NCBI GenBank assembly: GCA_040902005.1
Contig: JBBDYA010000080.1
Location: forward strand, 1-22,299
DNA: 22,299 bases
DNA from: Gemmatimonadaceae bacterium
GTDB lineage: Bacteria > Gemmatimonadota > Gemmatimonadetes > Gemmatimonadales > Gemmatimonadaceae
Direction of reading: 5' to 3'
The notes beneath the pieces are model-generated. The model ran no database searches and was not told where the DNA came from. It saw only the letters and a program-made list of their open reading frames with translations. The translations under genes and the position numbers were made by a program. How positions within the stretch are numbered: the stretch's first letter is position 1; each line of letters opens with the position of its first letter. Below, in pieces: positions 2,673 to 22,299 of the stretch.

Positions 2673-2703
2673 GCCGGCGTGAGGGCGGATGCCTCACGCC
2701 GGC
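2673..2703. terminator. GC-rich hairpin between convergent gcvH and gcvP (probable bidirectional terminator or stabiliser)
   Basis: Perfect 12-bp stem GCCGGCGTGAGG (2673-2684) / CCTCACGCCGGC (2692-2703) with a 7-nt loop, overlapping the gcvP stop codon. No U-tract. Confidence 0.55.
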
Positions 2704-5579
2704 GCGTACGCGTCGATCGGGGGACAGGCACAGACCAGGTTGCGGTCGCCGTACGCGCTCTCCACCCGTCCCACGGCGGGCCAGAACTTGTGCTCGCGCA
2801 CCCACTCCACGGGGAACGCCGCCTGCTCGCGCGAGTAGGGATGCGGCCAGGCGTCACTCACCACGCGGCGCGCCGGGTGCGGCGCGTTCTTCAGCACATT
2901 GTCCTTCCGGTCGCCCGCGCCGGTTTCGATCTCGCGGATCTCCTCGCGAATCCGGATCAACGCGTCGCAGAACCGGTCCAGCTCCGCCTTCGGTTCGCTC
3001 TCGGTCGGCTCGATCATCAGCGTGCCGGCCACGGGAAACGACACGGTCGGCGCGTGGAACCCATAATCCATGAGCCGTTTCGCGATGTCCTCGACCTCCA
3101 CGCCACTCAGCGCTTTCAGCCCGCGCGGATCCACGATGCATTCGTGCGCGATGAGCCCCTGCGCGCCCTTGTACAGCACGGGGTAGTGCGGTTCCAGCCG
3201 CCTCGCGATGTAGTTCGCGTTGAGGATGGCCATCTTCGTGGCGTGGGTGAGTCCCTCACCCCCCATCATGTCGATATACATCATCGAGATCGGCAGGATG
3301 CTCGCGCTGCCCCAGGGGGCCGCGGACACCGCCCCAGTGCGCTCGCCCGCGAGCTTCACCACGGCATGGCCGGGGAGGAACGGCACCAGGTGCTGCGCGA
3401 CCCCGATGGGACCCATCCCCGGGCCGCCGCCGCCATGTGGAATGCAGAACGTCTTGTGCAGGTTCAGGTGACACACGTCGCCGCCGATGTCACCCGGCCG
3501 CGCCAGCCCGACCATCGCGTTCATGTTCGCGCCGTCGAGATACACCTGCCCGCCGTGCTCGTGCACGATCGCGCAGATATCAACGATGCCCTCCTCGAAA
3601 ACACCGTGCGTGGACGGATACGTCACCATCAGCGCGCCGAGCTGCTTGGCGTGCTCGGCGGCCTTGGCGCGCAGGTCCCCGATGTCGATGTTCCCGTGCT
3701 CGTCCGTCTTCACGACCACGACGCGCATGCCCGCCATGACGGCGCTCGCGGGGTTGGTGCCGTGCGCCGACTGTGGAATCAGACAGATGTCCCGGTGTGC
3801 CTCCTTCCGGGATTCGTGGTACGCCCGGATCACGAGCAACCCCGCGTATTCACCCTGCGAGCCCGCATTCGGCTGGAGTGACACCCCGGCGAACCCGGTG
3901 ATTTCAGCGAGCGCGCGCTCGAGGTTCGCGAACAGCTCCTGATACCCCTTCAGCTGATCGAGGGGCGCGAACGGATGCGGCTTCGCGAACTCGGGCCAGG
4001 TGATGGGGAACATCTCCGACGTGGCGTTCAGCTTCATCGTGCATGAGCCGAGCGGGATCATCGAATGCGTGAGCGACAGGTCGCGCGACTCCAACCGGCG
4101 CATGTAGCGCAGCATCTCGGTTTCACTGCGATGGCTGCTGAACACCGGGTGCGTGAGGAACGCGCTCGTGCGCGCGAATGGCGCGTCGTAGTGTTCGTCC
4201 ACCGTCAGCGATGCGATCGCGGGCGCGTCGCGCTTGCCGCCCGCGAACACCGAGAGCAGGTCGCGCAGGTCCGCGTCGCCCACGGTTTCGTCCAGGGCCA
4301 CGCACACCGCGTCGTCGGTGAGCTGCCGCAGGTTGATCTTCTGCGCCCGGGCGCGGCCCACGATCGACGCCGCCAGCCCGGTGCCGACCTCCACGCGCAC
4401 CGTGTCGAAGAACACCTGGTGCCGAACCTTGAACCCGAGGGATTCGACGCCGCGCGCAAGTTGTTCTGCGTAGCGGTGCACCCGCTTCGCAATCGCGGCG
4501 ATTCCATCCGGCCCGTGATACACCGCGTACATGCCGGCGATCACCGCCAGCAGCACCTGGGCCGTGCACACGTTGCTGGTCGCTTTCTCCCGCCGGATGT
4601 GCTGCTCCCGCGTCTGGAGCGCCATGCGCAGCGCCGGACGGCCGTCGGCATCCCGGGAGACGCCAATGATGCGCCCCGGCAGCTGGCGCCTGAATTCATC
4701 CTTCGTCGAGAAGAAGGCGGCGTGCGGGCCGCCGAAGCCCATCGGCACACCGAAGCGCTGCGTGTTGCCCACTACCACGTCCGCCCCCCATTCGCCCGGC
4801 GGCGCCAGGACGGCGAGGCTCAAGAGGTCCGCCGCGACAGTCACCAGGGCCTCGCCCGCGTGCGCGCGCTCGCAGAACTCGCGGTAGTCCACGACCGCGC
4901 CATCGGTGGTGGGATACTGCACGAGCGCGCCGAACACCGACCCGTCGAACCGGAACGCGCGCCAGTCGCCGACGATCACCTCCCACCCGCGCGCCCGCGC
5001 CCGCGTGCGCACCACGTCGATGGTCTGCGGGTGGCACTCGTCGGACACGAAATACCGGGTGCGGTCCCCCGCCCTGGCGCCGTGCGACAAGCCGACCGCC
5101 TCCGCCGCCGCGGTCGCCTCGTCGAGCAGCGACGCGTTGGCGATCTCCATCCCCGTCAGATCCATCACCATGGTTTGGTAGTTCAGCAGCGCTTCCAGCC
5201 GGCCCTGCGCGATCTCCGCCTGGTAGGGCGTGTACGCGGTGTACCAGCCAGGGTTCTCGAGGATGTTCCGCTGGATCACCGGCGGCGTGATGGTATCGGC
5301 GTAGCCCATCCCGAGGTACGACCGGTACAGCTCGTTCCTGGAGGCACTCCGCTTCATCGAGCGCAGCGCGTCGAACTCGCTCATGGCCGCCTGGATGGCC
5401 AGTGGTGCCTTCATGCGGATGCGACGCGGCACGGCGGCGTCGATCAGCGCGTCGAGGCTATCGTATCCGAGCAGCTCGAGCATGGCCTGCGTCTCGTGCG
5501 CACGAGGGCCGATGTGGCGATCGACGAAACGGTCAGCGCCGGGACTGGCAGGCGCGGAGGCGGGAGTGGTCGGGTTCAT
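2694..5579 (-). CDS. gcvP: Glycine dehydrogenase (decarboxylating), single-chain P protein
   Basis: 961 aa; [48 protein letters not shown]-lysine motif [30 protein letters not shown]. Confidence 0.98.
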
Positions 5580-16939: not shown

Positions 16940-17667
16940 CCGGCGAGCTTCCAGCGCGCCTCGTCCGCCACCTGGCGCATGAGACGCTCCGGCGTGTGGA
17001 CCCGCGGAAAGAGCAGCGCGTCCGACATCGTGTTGAGCGCCACACGCAGCAGCCCGAACCGCGCCGCGATGGCCGTATACACGCCCGCCATCCCGTACTG
17101 CTCCGCCATCCGGTGCTCGGCGGCGAGCTCGAAGCCGCGCTTCCCCAGTTCCTCGAAGTACGCGAGGTCGGGACCACCGCGCCGCCACCGGCGTTGCTCG
17201 ATGTTGTCCGGAAACATGCCCGAAAACCACAGCGCGTGGTTGCCCAAGTGCACCCGAACGAGAAAGGCACGGCGCGGATCGCCGTCGTTCACATCGTCCA
17301 GGAGTGACGCGAGCGTGTCGTACAGTTCGTCGTCGGCGTCGCCGATCCGCTCGGACCGCCCGCGCGCGTTGAACGCCAGCACCACGGCCGCCAGGTAATC
17401 GCTCAGGGCGCGATCCGTTTCGCCCGCTCGCAGCAACGCATGCCGCACCATGACGTACAGGAACAACGGCAGTGAGGCGTACGCCCCGAACGAGCATCGG
17501 AGCAACGCGCGCGGAAGGTGGTGATCGTCGAGTATGCCATCGATCCCGTCGTCAACCAACCGCTGCTGCACGTCGCCGACATCGGCCCGGGACTCGGTGG
17601 CCACGAGTCGGACGGCGAGCTGCGCGTCTTCGCGCGTGAGCAGGTGCCGAGCATTTGCAAGAATCAT
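16936..17667 (-). CDS. Hypothetical protein (243 aa)
   Basis: ATG at 17667 (MILANARHLL) follows a strong SD, GGGGGGAGG, and codon usage is host-like. The ORF-track extension to 17820 runs into the IS end and is not credible. Confidence 0.8.
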   Translation of the reverse strand: MILANARHLLTREDAQLAVRLVATESRADVGDVQQRLVDDGIDGILDDHHLPRALLRCSFGAYASLPLFLYVMVRHALLRAGETDRALSDYLAAVVLAFNARGRSERIGDADDELYDTLASLLDDVNDGDPRRAFLVRVHLGNHALWFSGMFPDNIEQRRWRRGGPDLAYFEELGKRGFELAAEHRMAEQYGMAGVYTAIAARFGLLRVALNTMSDALLFPRVHTPERLMRQVADEARWKLAG

Positions 17668-17770
17668 CTGCGCCTCCCCCCTGAGACCCAATACCCGCGG
17701 TCGGTTCGAAGGTTGTGTGAAGGCAGGACCCGTGCTCCTCAGACTGCCTGGACCGCCTGAGGTAAAACGT

Positions 17771-17797
17771 TTGGCACTCAGCAGTTGACAGTGCTGA
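17771..17797. promoter_or_regulatory. CIRCE-like operator (putative HrcA site)
   Basis: TTGGCACTC-N9-CAGTGCTGA against the consensus TTAGCACTC-N9-GAGTGCTAA: 8/9 and 7/9 matches with exact 9-nt spacing; about 100 nt upstream of the hypothetical gene starting at 17667. Confidence 0.6.
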
Positions 17798-17798
17798 C
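17791..17798 (+). repeat. Target-site duplication, left copy (GTGCTGAC)
   Basis: Identical 8-mer at 21337-21344; each copy directly abuts a TIR. Confidence 0.93.
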
Positions 17799-17820
17799 GG
17801 CGTCTATGTATTTGGCGCAC
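17799..17820 (+). repeat. Terminal inverted repeat (left)
   Basis: GGCGTCTATGTATTTGGCGCAC matches the reverse complement of 21315-21336 (GGCGTGTATGGATTTGACGCAC) at 19/22 positions. Confidence 0.92.
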
Positions 17821-17850
17821 AGGGCACGGCCACCACCACAGAAGGGGCCT

Positions 17851-18240
17851 ATGACGGCCCTTAACGCGGAGATTGTAGCGCGAGCCGATCCCGGCATAGC
17901 CCCCGCCGTGAGGGTTCTGTTGGACGCTGGCATAGAAACCTTCGAGTCATGCCAGGGGGGGCGCGGCCATTGTTATCCCGAACCGACTGTCCGGTTCTTT
18001 GGCCAGCGGTCGGAGGGCTTCCGGGCCTTAGCCGCCGTGCGCCAACTGGCCTTCCGGGTCCATTCGCTTCGACGCATCTGGCCGATCATCGACGGGGAGC
18101 CCACAGGCCCGTATTGGGAGCTGGTTTTTGAGGCCGGGCTATACGAGGACGCGGAGCAGTCACGCGACGTGCTGGTGCAGGCGGCAAACGCGGGCACGGC
18201 TCAAGAGTGGTTCCGCGCCCGCGAGAGGCCACATGCCTAA
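17851..18240 (+). CDS. Passenger hypothetical protein (129 aa) with a D-x-x-I...T-x-x-SCQG-x-x-x-H motif
   Basis: ATG at 17851 follows the SD-like GAAGGGG (17841-17847). Globular-looking sequence ADPGIAPAVRVLLDAGIETFESCQGGRGHCYPEPTVRF. The ORF-track start at 17785 lies outside the element. Confidence 0.75.
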   Translation: MTALNAEIVARADPGIAPAVRVLLDAGIETFESCQGGRGHCYPEPTVRFFGQRSEGFRALAAVRQLAFRVHSLRRIWPIIDGEPTGPYWELVFEAGLYEDAEQSRDVLVQAANAGTAQEWFRARERPHA

Positions 18241-18241
18241 C

Positions 18242-18391
18242 TCACTTGCAGTTTTGGCAGCGCGGGCGACCGCCCGTTCCCGACACCCTGTTGTACGTCT
18301 CGATGTTGTTCCCTTCGGTGCAGGTGTCGTCGTCGTGGTACACCTTCTTGTCGCTTTCCCGCTTCGAGTGGAACGGTGCAACTCTGGCCAT
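18242..18391 (-). CDS. 49-aa putative zinc-binding microprotein (H-x4-C...CxxC)
   Basis: Translated by hand: MARVAPFHSKRESDKKVYHDDDTCTEGNNIETYNRVSGTGGRPRCQNCK*. SD-like GGGAAGGG lies 4 nt before the ATG, and the stop is 1 nt from the convergent gene's stop. Confidence 0.75.
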   Translation of the reverse strand: MARVAPFHSKRESDKKVYHDDDTCTEGNNIETYNRVSGTGGRPRCQNCK

Positions 18392-18510
18392 GGTACCCTT
18401 CCCGTTAGGAGGAAGTGGAACGATATAACCAAAGACTCATTTAGGAAATACGGATTAACACGGCCGGTAGGAAATGCGAAAGGATCGCCTTTACTAAACC
18501 GGTCCGCTGC

Positions 18511-18651
18511 TCATTTCTTCTTTTTGCTTGGCGGTTTCCCGCGTTTTAGCGCCTGCTTTAAGGCGTCCTTCCAGTCTCCCTCAATCTTGAGGGTCTCGGG
18601 CGGGCGTCCGCGCTTCTTGGAGGGTGTCTTTTTCTTGGGCATTTCGTCCAT
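18511..18651 (-). CDS. Small basic peptide (43-46 aa) with an AT-hook-like KRGRPP motif
   Basis: MDEMPKKKTPSKKRGRPPETLKIEGDWKDALKQALKRGKPPSKKKK, starting at 18651 or 18642. The ORF-track start at 18708 lies inside the tRNA. Confidence 0.6.
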   Translation of the reverse strand: MDEMPKKKTPSKKRGRPPETLKIEGDWKDALKQALKRGKPPSKKKK

Positions 18652-18671
18652 TTTGGTAGTAGATTGTCTAG

Positions 18672-18757
18672 TGCGGTCGGCGGGGTTCGAACCCGCAATC
18701 TCGGCCAAGAGAAATAGATTCCAGGTCTATCGCGTTTACCGTTTTCGCCACGACCGC
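18672..18757 (-). tRNA. Atypical class II tRNA: Leu-type body, anticodon TGG (Pro), C33, no encoded CCA
   Basis: Cloverleaf read by hand: acceptor GCGGTCG/CGACCGC plus A73; D arm GCG-AAAACGGTAAA-CGC; anticodon arm ATAGA-CCTGGAA-TCTAT; 17-nt variable arm with a TCTC/GAGA stem; T arm GCGGG-TTCGAAC-CCCGC. Followed by CTA rather than CCA. Confidence 0.88.
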
Positions 18758-18758
18758 G

Positions 18759-18795
18759 CCCCGTACTGCCGTCAGCAGTACGGGGTTTCTTGTTT
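18759..18795 (+). terminator. Perfect 11-bp hairpin with a U-rich tail on the + strand
   Basis: CCCCGTACTGC-cgtca-GCAGTACGGGG (18759-18785), followed by TTTCTTGTTT. Confidence 0.65.
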
Positions 18796-18796
18796 C

Positions 18797-19264
18797 CTAT
18801 TCCGTGGCCAAGCTGGCTTCCTGAGGCTTCCATTCGCGCTGCTCCAGTTCGGTGGTCAGCGCCAAGAGGTTCATGGGAGGAAGCCAAAGCGGTCCGAACC
18901 GACCTTTGCCGCTCAGCGACGCAAGGGTTTCGCGGACGAATGGGTACAGCGCTGCTGGCCCTGCTTTCACCACGTAATCGCGAAGCGACATGTTCGGTTC
19001 GTCGGTCTGTTCAACGACCGCGACAAACTCAATACCGAACCGATAGAGGCTGTTCGCCGCCTCTTCTTTTGGCGTGAACACAGAAACGGATACGATGCCG
19101 CTTTTCTCGTCCGGGGAGATGCCGACCCTGACCTTCACTTTTGTAGGTATGTCCTCGACGGGCGTGGTTGGCGGAAGGGCCAGCGCATCATTGCGCGTCT
19201 CGAAGTGGCAACGAGACAAGAAGATCTGATTGATCTTGATGCCGGGGTTTTTTGTGGCGTCCAT
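18797..19264 (-). CDS. SecB-like chaperone (TAC chaperone)
   Basis: IKINQIFLSRCHFE resembles SecB strand 1, and GPAALYPFVRETLASLSGKGRFGPLWLPPMN resembles the SecB C-terminal motif P-x-x-L-F-P-Y-x-R...G-x-F-P-x-L-x-L-x-P-V-N. Its ATG directly abuts the antitoxin TAA. Confidence 0.88.
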   Translation of the reverse strand: MDATKNPGIKINQIFLSRCHFETRNDALALPPTTPVEDIPTKVKVRVGISPDEKSGIVSVSVFTPKEEAANSLYRFGIEFVAVVEQTDEPNMSLRDYVVKAGPAALYPFVRETLASLSGKGRFGPLWLPPMNLLALTTELEQREWKPQEASLATE

Positions 19265-19744
19265 TTAGTTCGCGAAGTACGACGGAAGGGTGGTGGTCAA
19301 CGTCTGACGCACCCGCTGGTGCGTACTGCCGCCTACGTGCAGCGGTGGGACGTTCGCCGTGTGTACCTGAAAGGCCCGCATCGAAATCGCGGGATACTCC
19401 GCTGTCGCTTCAGGGGTGGCACCCAACGGTTCTGTCCACAGGTCGCGCACCTGTCGGCCAGCCGCCCACAGCAGAGCGCCAAGCGTGCGAAGAGTCATGT
19501 TCGTCGAGCCGTTCAGAGCCTGACTCACATACGACTTCGTGGTGCCGAGCAGGCCTGCCACTTCAGAGCGCGACAGCCCAGCCCTCTTGATCGCGTCCTG
19601 AACAGCGGCGGTGATCGCGGAAATCGCTTCGTCCTCGGCATATGGACGCAGCGAAGTACCTGCGGGGAGCTGCCGCGCAATCCAGTGGTCGCTGGGCAGG
19701 TCATCTACGGTGCGAATCACGTTCTTAGTCATCTGCGGGTCCAT
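19265..19744 (-). CDS. XRE/Cro HTH antitoxin (HigA-like) with a C-terminal extension
   Basis: AGLSRSEVAGLLGTTKSYVSQALNGSTNMTLRTLGALLWAAG is a typical HTH_XRE segment, followed by about 50 extra residues. The start (19744 or 19732) overlaps the toxin's end. Confidence 0.85.
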   Translation of the reverse strand: MDPQMTKNVIRTVDDLPSDHWIARQLPAGTSLRPYAEDEAISAITAAVQDAIKRAGLSRSEVAGLLGTTKSYVSQALNGSTNMTLRTLGALLWAAGRQVRDLWTEPLGATPEATAEYPAISMRAFQVHTANVPPLHVGGSTHQRVRQTLTTTLPSYFAN

Positions 19745-20108
19745 TCAAGTAGTCCTGAAGCCGTTTCAGAGCCGTTCGGTAGTCCGGCTCTTGTCCTGTG
19801 GTCTTTTTCTTCGCCGCGTGAAGAACGACGTAGGTGTTCCGGTCTTTGTAGCCCCATGATCGCGTGACCTTGAGGTTGAACTGATGCAGATCGCGGAACT
19901 CCCCCTCCAACTGATGCCCGTTGTTTTCCAGCCGTATCCGCCCAAACCGGGCCATCTCGCGGCAGCGTTGAAGGAACTGCGCGAAGTCGTACGGATGCCG
20001 CTCCAAGAAACGCCGCGCGGGGAACTCGTGGCGGAAGCGCATCCAGCGGACCCGCATGGCGGGTCCGTCGAGGATGAAAGCGGTTTCAGGAAGTTCATCA
20101 GGCTCCAC
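19725..20108 (-). CDS. RelE/ParE-superfamily toxin, HigB/Gp49-like
   Basis: About 127 aa; HQLEGEFRDLHQF...R...YVVLHAAKKKTTGQEPDYRTALKRLQDY parallels the Gp49/HigB pattern L-x-G...LWE...R...VLLHxFxKKT...A-x-x-R. Toxin-first order upstream of an HTH gene. The start is uncertain (GTG 20108 preferred; 20138 possible). Confidence 0.75.
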   Translation of the reverse strand: MEPDELPETAFILDGPAMRVRWMRFRHEFPARRFLERHPYDFAQFLQRCREMARFGRIRLENNGHQLEGEFRDLHQFNLKVTRSWGYKDRNTYVVLHAAKKKTTGQEPDYRTALKRLQDYLNGPADD

Positions 20109-20128
20109 GGTGTAGCTATAACTACACC
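20109..20128. promoter_or_regulatory. Palindromic operator, putative antitoxin autoregulation site
   Basis: GGTGTAG-C-TATA-A-CTACACC is a 20-bp palindrome with one mismatched pair, directly abutting the toxin GTG at 20108. Confidence 0.65.
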
Positions 20129-20217
20129 ACCGTCCCACATTTCGCTAGGTTGGCCGTTATGTCCGCCAGTAAACAACGATTTGGAGCAGTTTAAGCCACA
20201 CTGGAAATTAGTGGCAC

Positions 20218-20245
20218 TTGACGCACAGGGTGCGTGTAGTATCAT
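20218..20245 (+). promoter_or_regulatory. Putative sigma70 promoter of the transposase (leaderless transcript)
   Basis: TTGACG (20218-20223), a 16-nt spacer, then TATCAT (20240-20245). The A of the ATG (20252) is 7 nt after the -10 box, and no SD is present. Confidence 0.55.
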
Positions 20246-20251
20246 TATACC

Positions 20252-21307
20252 ATGCCTAAAGTCGCCAATAAGAGGTCAGCCCTCGAAGCCCGTATCCCAA
20301 TCGCCTGCTCGGATGAAGGCGCAGCCGTGGCGTTCCTCGAAGAACAGCGGTGGGGCGATACGCCCAACTGCCCGCGTTGTGGGGATACCGACGTGACGCA
20401 GATGAAGGCCAAGGACGGCACCCGCAATGCGCGGTTCCTGTGGCGCTGCAAGGGCTGCAAGCAGCAGTACACGGTCCGCGTTGGGACGATCATGGAGGAC
20501 AGCCCCATCCCCTTCCGTCACTGGTGCCTGGCGTTCTTCCGGGCCGCGTCCAGCAAGAAGGGCATCAGCGCCTTGCAGATTCAGCGCGAGACCGGCCTGT
20601 CCTACAAGAGCGCCCTGTTCCTCATGCACCGTATCCGCTGGGCAATGGCGCCAGCCAACGAGAACGAGCCCAAGCTGGGACGTGACGGCGGTATCGTGGA
20701 GTACGACGAGACATACGTTGGCGGTCGCCCGCGTGGTCATGCGCGGTACCTGAAGGCAGACGGTAATTACCGCTCAGGCCCCGCAACCGATTTCGCGGAC
20801 CGCAAGACGCCCGTTGTCGGCGGCATTGAGCGCGATGGCCGCGTAAAGGCTCGCGTTGTCTCAAGTCTCACCGCTACCGAACTGGCCAAGAACGTCGTCG
20901 CAATGGTGGACCCGTCAGCGCACTTGCAGACCGATCAGGCGCAAGCGTACAAGGCGGTCGGGCAGGACTTCGCCAGTCATGAGCGTATCCGCCACAACGC
21001 TGGCCAGTACGTGCGTTATACCGAGGAAGGCCTACAGGTCACGACGAATCGCATCGAGGGCTTCTGGTCGCTGCTCAAGAAGCAGATTCACGGCACCCAT
21101 ACCTCAGTGAGCCGGAAGCACCTTCAGCGTTACGTCAGCGAAGTGGAGTTCAAGTACAACAACCGTGGCCTGAGCGATGGCGAGCGCACGGTGAAGCTGA
21201 TTCAGTCGTGCGACCATCGCCGCCTGACCTACAAGGAATTGACCGCCGAACGTGACCGCCGTGGTCGCACCCTCAACCGTGACGCGTTGGGGCGCATCTG
21301 CAAATGA
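20252..21307 (+). CDS. IS1595-family DDE transposase (ISXO2-like domain)
   Basis: Zinc ribbon CPRC...CKGC, HTH ISALQIQRETGLSYKSALFLMHRIR, catalytic motifs VEYDETYVGG, LQTDQAQAY and TTNRIEGFWSLLK, plus RYVSEVEFKYN. No frameshift. Confidence 0.97.
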   Translation: MPKVANKRSALEARIPIACSDEGAAVAFLEEQRWGDTPNCPRCGDTDVTQMKAKDGTRNARFLWRCKGCKQQYTVRVGTIMEDSPIPFRHWCLAFFRAASSKKGISALQIQRETGLSYKSALFLMHRIRWAMAPANENEPKLGRDGGIVEYDETYVGGRPRGHARYLKADGNYRSGPATDFADRKTPVVGGIERDGRVKARVVSSLTATELAKNVVAMVDPSAHLQTDQAQAYKAVGQDFASHERIRHNAGQYVRYTEEGLQVTTNRIEGFWSLLKKQIHGTHTSVSRKHLQRYVSEVEFKYNNRGLSDGERTVKLIQSCDHRRLTYKELTAERDRRGRTLNRDALGRICK

Positions 21308-21314
21308 GGAAGCC

Positions 21315-21336
21315 GTGCGTCAAATCCATACACGCC
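21315..21336 (-). repeat. Terminal inverted repeat (right)
   Basis: GTGCGTCAAATCCATACACGCC lies 7 nt after the transposase stop and matches the left TIR at 19/22 positions. Confidence 0.92.
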
Positions 21337-21344
21337 GTGCTGAC
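21337..21344 (+). repeat. Target-site duplication, right copy (GTGCTGAC)
   Basis: Identical to 17791-17798. Confidence 0.93.
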
Positions 21345-21346
21345 GC

Positions 21347-22297
21347 TCAGCGAGGACGTGATTCCCGATTCGCCAGCGCGGCTCCGAGCTCGAGCAGGAG
21401 GGCGCTGATCCGGGACATCTTCTGGTAGTCGACCTTGGCTGGTTCGTCCGACACCTTGTGGTAGTCCTCGTGCAGTCCGGTGGTGAAGAACAGCACGGGG
21501 ATTCCCTTCTGCGCGTAGTTGACGTGGTCGCTGCGGAAGTAGATGCGTTCCGGATGATCCGGCGTATCCCACTCGCGATCGAGCTCCATCGGGCGAAGCT
21601 GCCGCGCATTCACGGTGTCCAGGATGGCGCCCAGCACCCGGCTCTGACCATTGGGCGCCGCCATCGGCCCAACCACGTAGACGCGATTCTCGGCGGCCAC
21701 GCCATCGGTCTGCGAATTGAATGCTGCCGTGGCGCCACCACGACGACCGATCATGTCGAGATTCACGTGCGCAACGATCGAGTCGATCGGCACGGTGGGG
21801 TTGCTGGTGAAATAGGCGGAGCCGAGCAGCCCCTTTTCCTCAGCGGTGTGCCACACGAACAGTACGGAACGCCTGGGCGGGTTGTCCCTGAGGGATCGGG
21901 CCAGCGCCAGCATCGCAACGGTGCCCGAACCGTTGTCGTCCGCGCCATTGGCGATCGAGTCCGGCGACATGCGCGGCTGGATCCCGATGTGGTCGTAATG
22001 GGCACCGAAGGCGACGAACGTCTTGTTCAGCAGGGGATCGGTTCCGCGCACGACGGCGACGATGTTGTGCGAGGTCACCTGATCCTGTCGCAGATCGATC
22101 CGGCCCAGAAAGGTGCGCCCGTCCAGCGGGCGCGGCGAATCGTCCGCCTGCCAGTTGGCCGGCAGCAGGGGCGAGTTGGGGCGCGCCAGGCCGAGAATGA
22201 TCATCGGCAGCGGGCGCTCCGAGTCCGACGTCGTGCGGTCACCGGGCGATGCCGTCACCGTGCGCATCAGCTCGGGCGCGGCCTGCGTGTAGAACTC
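21347..22297 (-). CDS. M28 family metallopeptidase (5'-partial)
   Basis: GAHYDHIG, NGADDNGSG, HTAEEKGLLGS, NLDMIGR, RSDH, DYHKVSD. The frame stays open to the window edge. Confidence 0.93.
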   Translation of the reverse strand, partial: EFYTQAAPELMRTVTASPGDRTTSDSERPLPMIILGLARPNSPLLPANWQADDSPRPLDGRTFLGRIDLRQDQVTSHNIVAVVRGTDPLLNKTFVAFGAHYDHIGIQPRMSPDSIANGADDNGSGTVAMLALARSLRDNPPRRSVLFVWHTAEEKGLLGSAYFTSNPTVPIDSIVAHVNLDMIGRRGGATAAFNSQTDGVAAENRVYVVGPMAAPNGQSRVLGAILDTVNARQLRPMELDREWDTPDHPERIYFRSDHVNYAQKGIPVLFFTTGLHEDYHKVSDEPAKVDYQKMSRISALLLELGAALANRESRPR

Positions 22298-22299
22298 GG

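Follow-up and report, generated by a model that had tools for sequence, protein, structure and literature searches.

The window analysed here, a stretch of 22,299 nucleotides from a Gemmatimonadaceae bacterium (GenBank assembly GCA_040902005.1, contig JBBDYA010000080.1), contains an insertion sequence (IS) of the IS1595 family that spans positions 17799-21336 (3,538 bp). The element encloses six minus-strand units: the toxin, antitoxin and SecB-like chaperone of a toxin-antitoxin-chaperone (TAC) system, a tRNA, a basic peptide and a Cys/His (zinc-finger-like) peptide. A preliminary description of this DNA presented these units as a stand-alone operon, a TAC extended by the tRNA and the peptides, and overlooked the terminal repeats, target-site duplication and transposase that place the whole unit inside a transposon. 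Members of the IS1595 family include transporter IS that carry passenger genes between terminal repeats of ~22 bp starting with GG, and they generate an 8-bp target duplication. In a search of 17300-21800, the longest inverted repeat pairs 17797-17820 with 21315-21338, and within it lie the 22-bp terminal inverted repeats that form the ends of the element (left, 17799-17820, plus strand; right, 21315-21336, minus strand). They are bracketed by identical 8-bp target-site duplications at 17791-17798 and 21337-21344, and genes are present between the repeats, as in transporter IS. The GC content of the element is 0.598, compared with 0.68 and 0.66 in its flanks. A single copy is found in the genome, and the insertion site is empty in all four same-genus loci examined, where the alignment runs continuously across the junction. 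Neither an empty-site joint nor a circle joint was seen in four DNA runs. A role of the tRNA as the integration site was considered and ruled out, as the tRNA is internal to the element and the insertion lies in an intergenic target. With high confidence, the region is a cargo-carrying IS1595 transposon built in two layers. We are just as firm on the content of the layers: a core of transposase, basic peptide and a leucine-identity tRNA with a UGG anticodon, and a cargo composed of a HigBAC-type TAC and a separate pair of a peptide and an open reading frame (ORF).

The transposase (20252-21307, plus strand) is intact, with 351 residues, and is divergent from the toxin gene. It scores 164.6 bits against NF033547 (cut-off 75), also matches PF12762 and PF12760, and has its closest relatives in Gemmatimonadaceae records. 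Overlapping divergent promoters are predicted at 20218-20252 on both strands from consensus matches only. The plus-strand promoter, with a -35 at 20218 and a -10 ending at 20245, would serve the transposase, and an extended -10 on the minus strand (20252-20244), read from the sequence, faces the cargo and overlaps the transposase start. The -35 region of the transposase promoter (20217-20225) repeats the inner motif of both terminal repeats and is a likely candidate for a transposase binding site used in autorepression. The basic peptide (18511-18651, minus strand, 46 residues) is encoded after a 20-nt gap from the tRNA. It matched no named family in a Pfam scan, and atlas searches returned only unnamed clusters; its homologues nevertheless form a conserved alignment and are present in 27 of 43 transposase-anchored loci. 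The basic peptide is a companion of this IS1595 group that follows the transposase. At several loci in our collection (numbered with the prefix L), its gene stands directly after the transposase stop codon or overlaps it in the +1 or -1 frame (L020, L029, L093, L095, L097, L121, L122, L202, L203 and L206), which suggests translational coupling or a fusion form.

The third core component is a type II tRNA with a UGG (Pro) anticodon at 18672-18757 on the minus strand (Rfam RF00005, 58.5 bits, E 1.6e-10). Bacterial tRNA-Leu is specified by A73, A15:U48, G18G19, A20a and a long variable arm, according to the accessible text of PMC9976931. The window tRNA displays each of these sequence features, along with G1:C72, loop residues C33 and A37 and a 7/5 acceptor/T-stem. 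Bacterial tRNA-Pro carries, in the same source, G72, G15:C48 and G37 besides A73, G35 and G36; the window tRNA has C72, A15:U48, A37 and the long arm, and is unlike both tRNA-Pro genes found in the host, which carries its own normal tRNA-Pro(UGG). The marks of allo-tRNAs (an 8/4 or 9/3 acceptor/T-stem; G73, U73 or G3:U70) are likewise absent from this 7/5, A73 molecule. An alternative register with a GGA (Ser) anticodon was rejected, as the 5-bp stem fixes UGG. Among 133 distinct tRNAs of the family, A73 is kept in 128, U48 in 131 and a full acceptor stem in 125, C1:G72 occurs in only 9, and 19 of 24 base pairs change on both sides. The family is conserved, with a leucine-identity body and a proline UGG anticodon.

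Genomic context ties this tRNA to the transposon. A transposase-anchored search, which carries no anticodon bias, found the strict Leu-body UGG pattern at 14 of 43 loci, and a covariance model added three more tRNAs. The pattern matches 8 of 401 genomes of the phylum. A metagenome scan gave, among the matches listed, 120 stretches, 80 of them with flanks; the 68 distinct tRNAs that it found there by pattern alone are accompanied by the transposase in 41 cases, the basic peptide in 25 and SecB in one, with transposase or basic peptide near 47 of the 68. Wherever both terminal repeats and tRNA were found at other loci, the tRNA lies within the repeats (26 of 26, three of them duplicates). The tRNA belongs to the transposon itself. 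Other unusual tRNAs occur in related elements. Near the transposase in L007, L008, L009, L022, L028, L033, L040, L042 and L198 lies a second tRNA-like class, whose members are short and fold oddly; several of them have a UGG loop, some have G3:U70 (Ala-like), and they reach only 15-31 bits on the family model. Mismatched tRNAs are also seen in L018, L019, L021, L024, L028, L036, L078, L125, L207, L210 and L238, where inspection by eye points to Ser-type bodies with UAA, CAA, UAG or ochre UUA anticodons, an Ala-type body with GUC, and Leu-type bodies with UGC or GGA.

The transposase family fixes the rare codon CCA at three sites. CCA is the second-rarest proline codon of the host (8.3% of Pro codons), and the window transposase contains exactly two, at positions 16 and 134. 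Among related transposases, the proline of position 16 is encoded by CCA in 52 of 61 cases, that of position 134 in 24 of 33 and that of a C-terminal RLxYxx site in 37 of 40; CCA is also used in 14 of 22 cases two columns after position 134, and nine ordinary Pro columns together have it in 23 of 430. When the set is reduced to 49 representatives below 65% identity, the three sites have CCA in 29/34, 12/17 and 23/26 cases versus 8/192 elsewhere, and they rank as the top three of 128 column sets for A/T-ending codons. Variation in the codons next to the CCA sites speaks against a DNA motif. Distant relatives have Leu at the C-terminal site. Two elements with an AGG tRNA offer a comparison: in L215 both the EP site and the C-terminal site are CCT, and L202 has no CCA. 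A parallel examination of GCA in three related elements, two of which have a UGC-anticodon tRNA, gave one shared column, a sample too small to use.

Taken as a whole, the locus is best explained, with somewhat better than even confidence, as an IS1595 element with TAC cargo and a transposon-private recoding tRNA that acts on the element's own transposase. We give slightly over an even chance to the specific mechanism, in which a leucine-charged tRNA reads CCA and inserts Leu at the fixed CCA codons of the transposase, controlling its output. Leucyl-tRNA synthetase (LeuRS), which ignores the anticodon, would charge the tRNA with leucine; the charged tRNA would then place Leu at a few fixed CCA codons, and transposase output would depend on the tRNA level. 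Where Leu is the ancestral residue, at the C-terminal site, its insertion would be activating, whereas at Pro16 and Pro134 it might have a damping effect. The tRNA would probably be transcribed by read-through from the upstream cargo, in this element from the TAC operon or from the outward promoter.

Several observations weigh against this recoding of the transposase. First, the window transposase already has a genuine Leu codon (TTG) at the C-terminal site, and its closest relatives carry Gln there, a residue that a UGG tRNA does not account for; at positions 16 and 134 the ancestral state was not Leu, and the effect there could go either way. Second, the link between codon and tRNA is not strict: of 12 elements in which no UGG tRNA was detected, 8 have CCA at position 16, a figure to be read with the caveat that the second, short tRNA class escapes the model. 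Third, the CCA counts come from related sequences, so their significance is overstated, and the D-arm and UGG anticodon of the relatives were set by the search pattern and are not independent evidence. Fourth, at 6 of 21 well-flanked metagenome tRNA loci, among the matches listed, neither the transposase nor the peptide is present. Fifth, the window copy could be weakened by C33, shared by 22 of the 133 family members, and by a hairpin that abuts its 5' end. Finally, CCA codons also occur in the antitoxin (two) and in SecB (four, with none in the toxin), which leaves room for an effect of the tRNA on the TAC.

C33 in the window copy also fits a different account, in which the tRNA is no mistranslator at all: it would be an uncharged or rarely used decoy, a stalling agent or an RNA handle, and the CCA codons would be speed sensors. 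Proline at position 16 is kept with other codons in L018, L029, L037 and L203, as this account allows, and some irregular tRNAs near toxin-antitoxin (TA) genes are charged but unused, or inactive, in E. coli, as reported in the accessible portion of PMC5389517. The leucine determinants, however, are held across the 133 sequences, with heavy covariation of the stems, and an ancestral Leu site has been replaced by CCA; we judge a non-recoding tRNA decidedly unlikely.

The C-terminal Leu site is also of interest in a more distant IS1595 clade (L212, L217-L223, L226, L230, L235, L236, L239, L243, L245, L249, L256, L259, L260, L275 and L276), whose transposases have N-C-T codons (Pro, Thr, Ala or Ser) at this position. 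The +1 frame there yields Leu followed by a similar basic tail (median 24 residues versus 5 in frame), and no tRNA was detected near most members; the pattern suggests a programmed +1 frameshift. For the clade of the window transposase, frameshifting at the C-terminal CCA site was considered but found no support, as no shared tail was seen by eye in either the +1 or the -1 frame.

The expression of the tRNA has to be considered together with its surroundings. Downstream of the SecB gene, a 39-nt gap precedes the tRNA, and gaps of 20 and 119 nt precede the basic and Cys/His peptides. No minus-strand U-tract terminator was found among the six units, in agreement with what the preliminary description had reported for the interval between chaperone and tRNA. 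The size of that 39-nt interval also stands, but it is filled by a hairpin: a 12-pair intrinsic terminator on the plus strand (18758-18786, z -5.4), antisense to the tRNA and abutting its 5' end. Read-through from the TAC into the tRNA is plausible because the units are co-oriented without a sense terminator. The tRNA position fits three layouts in 71 of 76 loci, with its 5' end, as we read them, facing the cargo side in each, and 17 loci are built like the window, with the tRNA 0.8-2.1 kb from a divergent transposase and the cargo between them. Whatever the cargo, a plus-strand terminator with an A-tract recurs: it precedes the tRNA at 12 of 19 loci with an adjacent peptide gene and at 13 of the 108 remaining loci, and a loose -10-like hexamer lies downstream on the antisense strand in 16 of 19 and 40 of 108, respectively. 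Layouts and hairpin together suggest read-through from the cargo plus an antisense RNA over the tRNA, with 18758-18786 as the candidate end of that RNA. That a short antisense RNA ending at this terminator holds the tRNA in check is a tentative proposal, which we consider possible but short of an even chance. A conserved trailer complementary to the T-loop is present just 3' of the tRNA in L001, L003, L005, L006, L014 and L079, and absent from the window copy; this trailer might make the precursor refold or provide an antisense RNA with its 5' stem.

The recurrence of this antisense arrangement independent of the cargo raises the idea that the tRNA is itself a toxin, causing proteome-wide Pro-to-Leu errors and neutralised by the antisense RNA. 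Such an RNA-RNA addiction or abortive-infection module would stabilise the transposon and hit CCA-rich foreign genes hardest. Missense allo-tRNAs that lie near TA genes have killed E. coli, according to the accessible text of PMC5389517. A general poison predicts, though, that the transposase should avoid CCA, yet CCA is fixed there; in addition, the terminator is absent from 95 of the 108 other loci and the antisense -10 of the window is a weak match. We consider a toxic tRNA improbable, and the transposase-directed recoding tRNA stays the preferred interpretation.

The cargo that separates tRNA and transposase in the window starts with a palindromic operator (20109-20128) directly before the toxin start. 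The toxin (19725-20108, minus strand, 127 residues) starts at a GTG at 20108, where its homologues (P0011 and others) also begin; P0009 and P0010 carry palindrome-derived sequence just upstream, and the window mRNA is probably leaderless. Hidden Markov model (HMM) scans with Pfam, NCBIfam and PADLOC gave no match for the toxin, so its assignment to the HigB/RelE fold relies on structure: the model, with a predicted local distance difference test (pLDDT) score of 84, matches the S. pneumoniae toxin-antitoxin structure 6AF4 with a template modelling (TM) score of 0.79 and a best E of 3.9e-4, and M. tuberculosis HigB1 (7AWK) with a TM score of 0.71. The HigA-type antitoxin (19265-19744, minus strand) overlaps the toxin end and has a helix-turn-helix (HTH) at residues 51-97, with PF13560 (HTH_31) and PF01381 (HTH_3) both above cut-off. 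Its C-terminal extension of ~60 residues bears the aromatics W103, Y117, F125, Y156 and F157, as read from the sequence, and is a candidate ChAD, the disordered, aromatic-containing C-terminal region to which SecB binds in HigBAC systems, that fits the preprint description (bioRxiv 10.1101/2024.02.24.581848); a single-sequence model of the antitoxin (pLDDT 41) was uninformative. The SecB-like chaperone (18797-19264, minus strand, 155 residues) abuts the antitoxin and matches PF02556 above cut-off (E 3.8e-10), with a weak match to PD-T4-9_C. A RelE/HigB-fold toxin comes first, an HTH antitoxin second and a SecB-like chaperone third, and on these features the trio is a TAC of the HigBAC type that probably serves in phage defence and addiction. 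No relatives of SecB were found in the viral contigs searched, and a search of plasmids with the toxin gave no match. A 579-residue plus-strand ORF at 18128-19867 had no Pfam match and was treated as a shadow frame. As an inventory, the preliminary description holds well: the six co-oriented minus-strand units are there with the order, overlap, abutment and gaps it gave them, the palindrome is found at 20128-20109, the fold match, HTH and PF02556 support its HigB-like toxin, HTH antitoxin and SecB-like chaperone, and the Rfam match confirms its atypical tRNA.

Whether these units form one module is a separate matter. The preliminary description saw in the tRNA and both peptides possible accessory parts of an extended TAC. 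If they were dedicated parts of such a system, mistranslation of the CCA codons in antitoxin and SecB could, for example, release the toxin, or the tRNA could serve as a second translation-poisoning arm. Those codons, the co-orientation of the units and the lack of a sense terminator are compatible with this, and SecB triplets recur in five other tRNA-bearing elements, just upstream of the tRNA in L001, L005, L146 and L288/L317 and downstream in L075. The partners in these triplets and their toxin types differ, however, with an MqsA-like antitoxin in L001 (below the Pfam cut-off) and HTH antitoxins in L005 and L075, and the same slot in other elements holds MqsA, HTH-Peptidase_M78, Fic, PIN, AlbA_2 or P63C genes. 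The toxin family occurs in 5 of 250 genomes of the order, always as a full triplet, and none of these five same-family TACs has a tRNA, basic peptide or transposase within 8.5-12 kb; a genome-wide search with the tRNA pattern found no match in any of the five genomes. SecB homologues are present in 14 of the 250 genomes, one of which neighbours this tRNA family, inside an IS. Among the matches listed, SecB occurs at 2 of 71 tRNA-anchored loci with at least 600 bp upstream, and the 43 transposase-anchored loci have SecB in 2 and the basic peptide in 27. Most of the 97 cargo ORFs scanned, out of 104 picked, had no family. In one locus scan the toxin and antitoxin profiles were built from the window alone and miss distant families. 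The sets exclude L063-L070 (short duplicates of L071-L077 and of the window), duplicate tRNA or protein sequences, transposases below 250 residues, L010 (contig too short) and L323 (unpublished genome). The TAC is ordinary, swappable cargo that does not need the tRNA, and a dedicated extended TAC is very unlikely. The neighbourhood survey of homologues that the preliminary description had proposed largely went against its module, which is mostly co-located cargo; its suggestion of co-transcription survives as plausible read-through, without a dedicated TAC-tRNA unit.

The remaining cargo is a tail-to-tail pair. The Cys/His peptide (18242-18391, minus strand, 49 residues) has 172 homologues and no Pfam family, and an atlas search returned only unnamed clusters. 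Neither a TAC nor the basic peptide nor a transposase accompanies it at any of the 12 other loci, and two tRNA matches near such loci are ordinary Leu-UAG; the peptide is separate cargo. Its partner, an unnamed plus-strand ORF at 17851-18240, encodes ~129 residues from an ATG at 17851 (it is listed with 151 residues from a TTG that lies outside the element) and has no Pfam or NCBIfam match. Homologues 58-62% identical are paired with the Cys/His peptide in IS loci L007 and L009.

The host flanks are ordinary, with glycine dehydrogenase GcvP at 2694-5579 and an M28 peptidase at 21347-22299; no NCBIfam match at 1e-8 was obtained for eight further ORFs between 10682 and 17650. A 9-9-9 inverted repeat at 17771-17797, also present in L321, resembles the CIRCE heat-shock operator. 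It lies upstream of an unnamed host gene on the minus strand and partly coincides with the left target duplication. Insertion next to this repeat may have altered the control of that gene.

A broader and more speculative scheme would join core and cargo. It envisages a private codon reassignment in a widespread transposon group: fixed CCA codons would be recoded by a Leu-charged UGG tRNA, which would thereby switch the transposase and would itself be silenced by an antisense RNA and supplied from the promoter of a stress-responsive upstream cargo; in the window, de-repression of the TAC under phage attack would lead to recoding and then to transposition. We regard this full chain as unlikely. 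If recoding itself is true, rewriting a single codon lets a mobile element control the enzyme that it encodes, and we found no such regulatory layer described in the open-licence literature; there would then be natural, testable cases of deliberate Pro-to-Leu mistranslation, and the annotated sequences of these transposases may differ from the proteins at work. With the TAC, a divergent family joins the HigBAC systems, and IS1595 elements are seen to shuttle defence modules.

Known systems cover much of what the locus holds. In HigBAC TACs, toxicity is neutralised only when the chaperone is present, and the systems defend against phage. They include the M. tuberculosis TAC and HigBAC of E. coli NT1F31 (bioRxiv 10.1101/2024.02.24.581848). 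As far as that text describes them, the window system has in common with them the toxin-antitoxin-SecB order, the HigB fold, an HTH antitoxin with an aromatic-bearing tail and a SecB-like chaperone; it differs in its divergent toxin family and in its location, carried by an IS1595 element with a mismatched tRNA lying downstream. In its accessible main text, the preprint mentions tRNA once and insertion sequences not at all. Soil and sediment data have revealed allo-tRNAs and irregular tRNA polycistrons close to TA genes and to ORFs related to transposons (Mukai et al., PMC5389517), and a role as missense suppressors has been proposed for them (PMC5389517; review PMC7609411). In the available parts of these sources, the disagreement of identity and anticodon and the nearby TA genes and transposon ORFs recall the window, whereas allo-tRNAs have 8/4 or 9/3 acceptor branches and Ser or Ala identity, and the window tRNA is 7/5 with Leu identity and UGG. 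The accessible text of PMC5389517 draws no link to transposase codons, and its supplement, figures aside, has no match for IS1595, transposase, UGG, SecB or transposon. The open-licence literature yielded no IS1595-borne Leu-body UGG tRNA and no transposase codon link. Streptomyces tRNA-ProA/ProX reportedly are mistranslating tRNAs that rely on a dedicated synthetase and place Pro at non-Pro codons; they would share with the window tRNA a natural bacterial origin and a mismatch of identity and anticodon, whereas the latter would insert Leu at Pro codons through the host LeuRS and from a transposon. TACs, passenger-carrying IS1595 elements and irregular tRNAs near TA genes and transposons are therefore already known, and the locus is not new as a tRNA-extended TAC. 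With transporter IS of its family, the element shares the zinc ribbon and DDE transposase, the ~22-bp repeats starting with GG, the 8-bp duplication and variable passengers. It departs from them in its recurrent non-canonical tRNA and basic peptide and in a transposase that fixes the codon read by that tRNA, and it is this mismatched tRNA, together with the fixed codons, that constitutes the real and testable finding.

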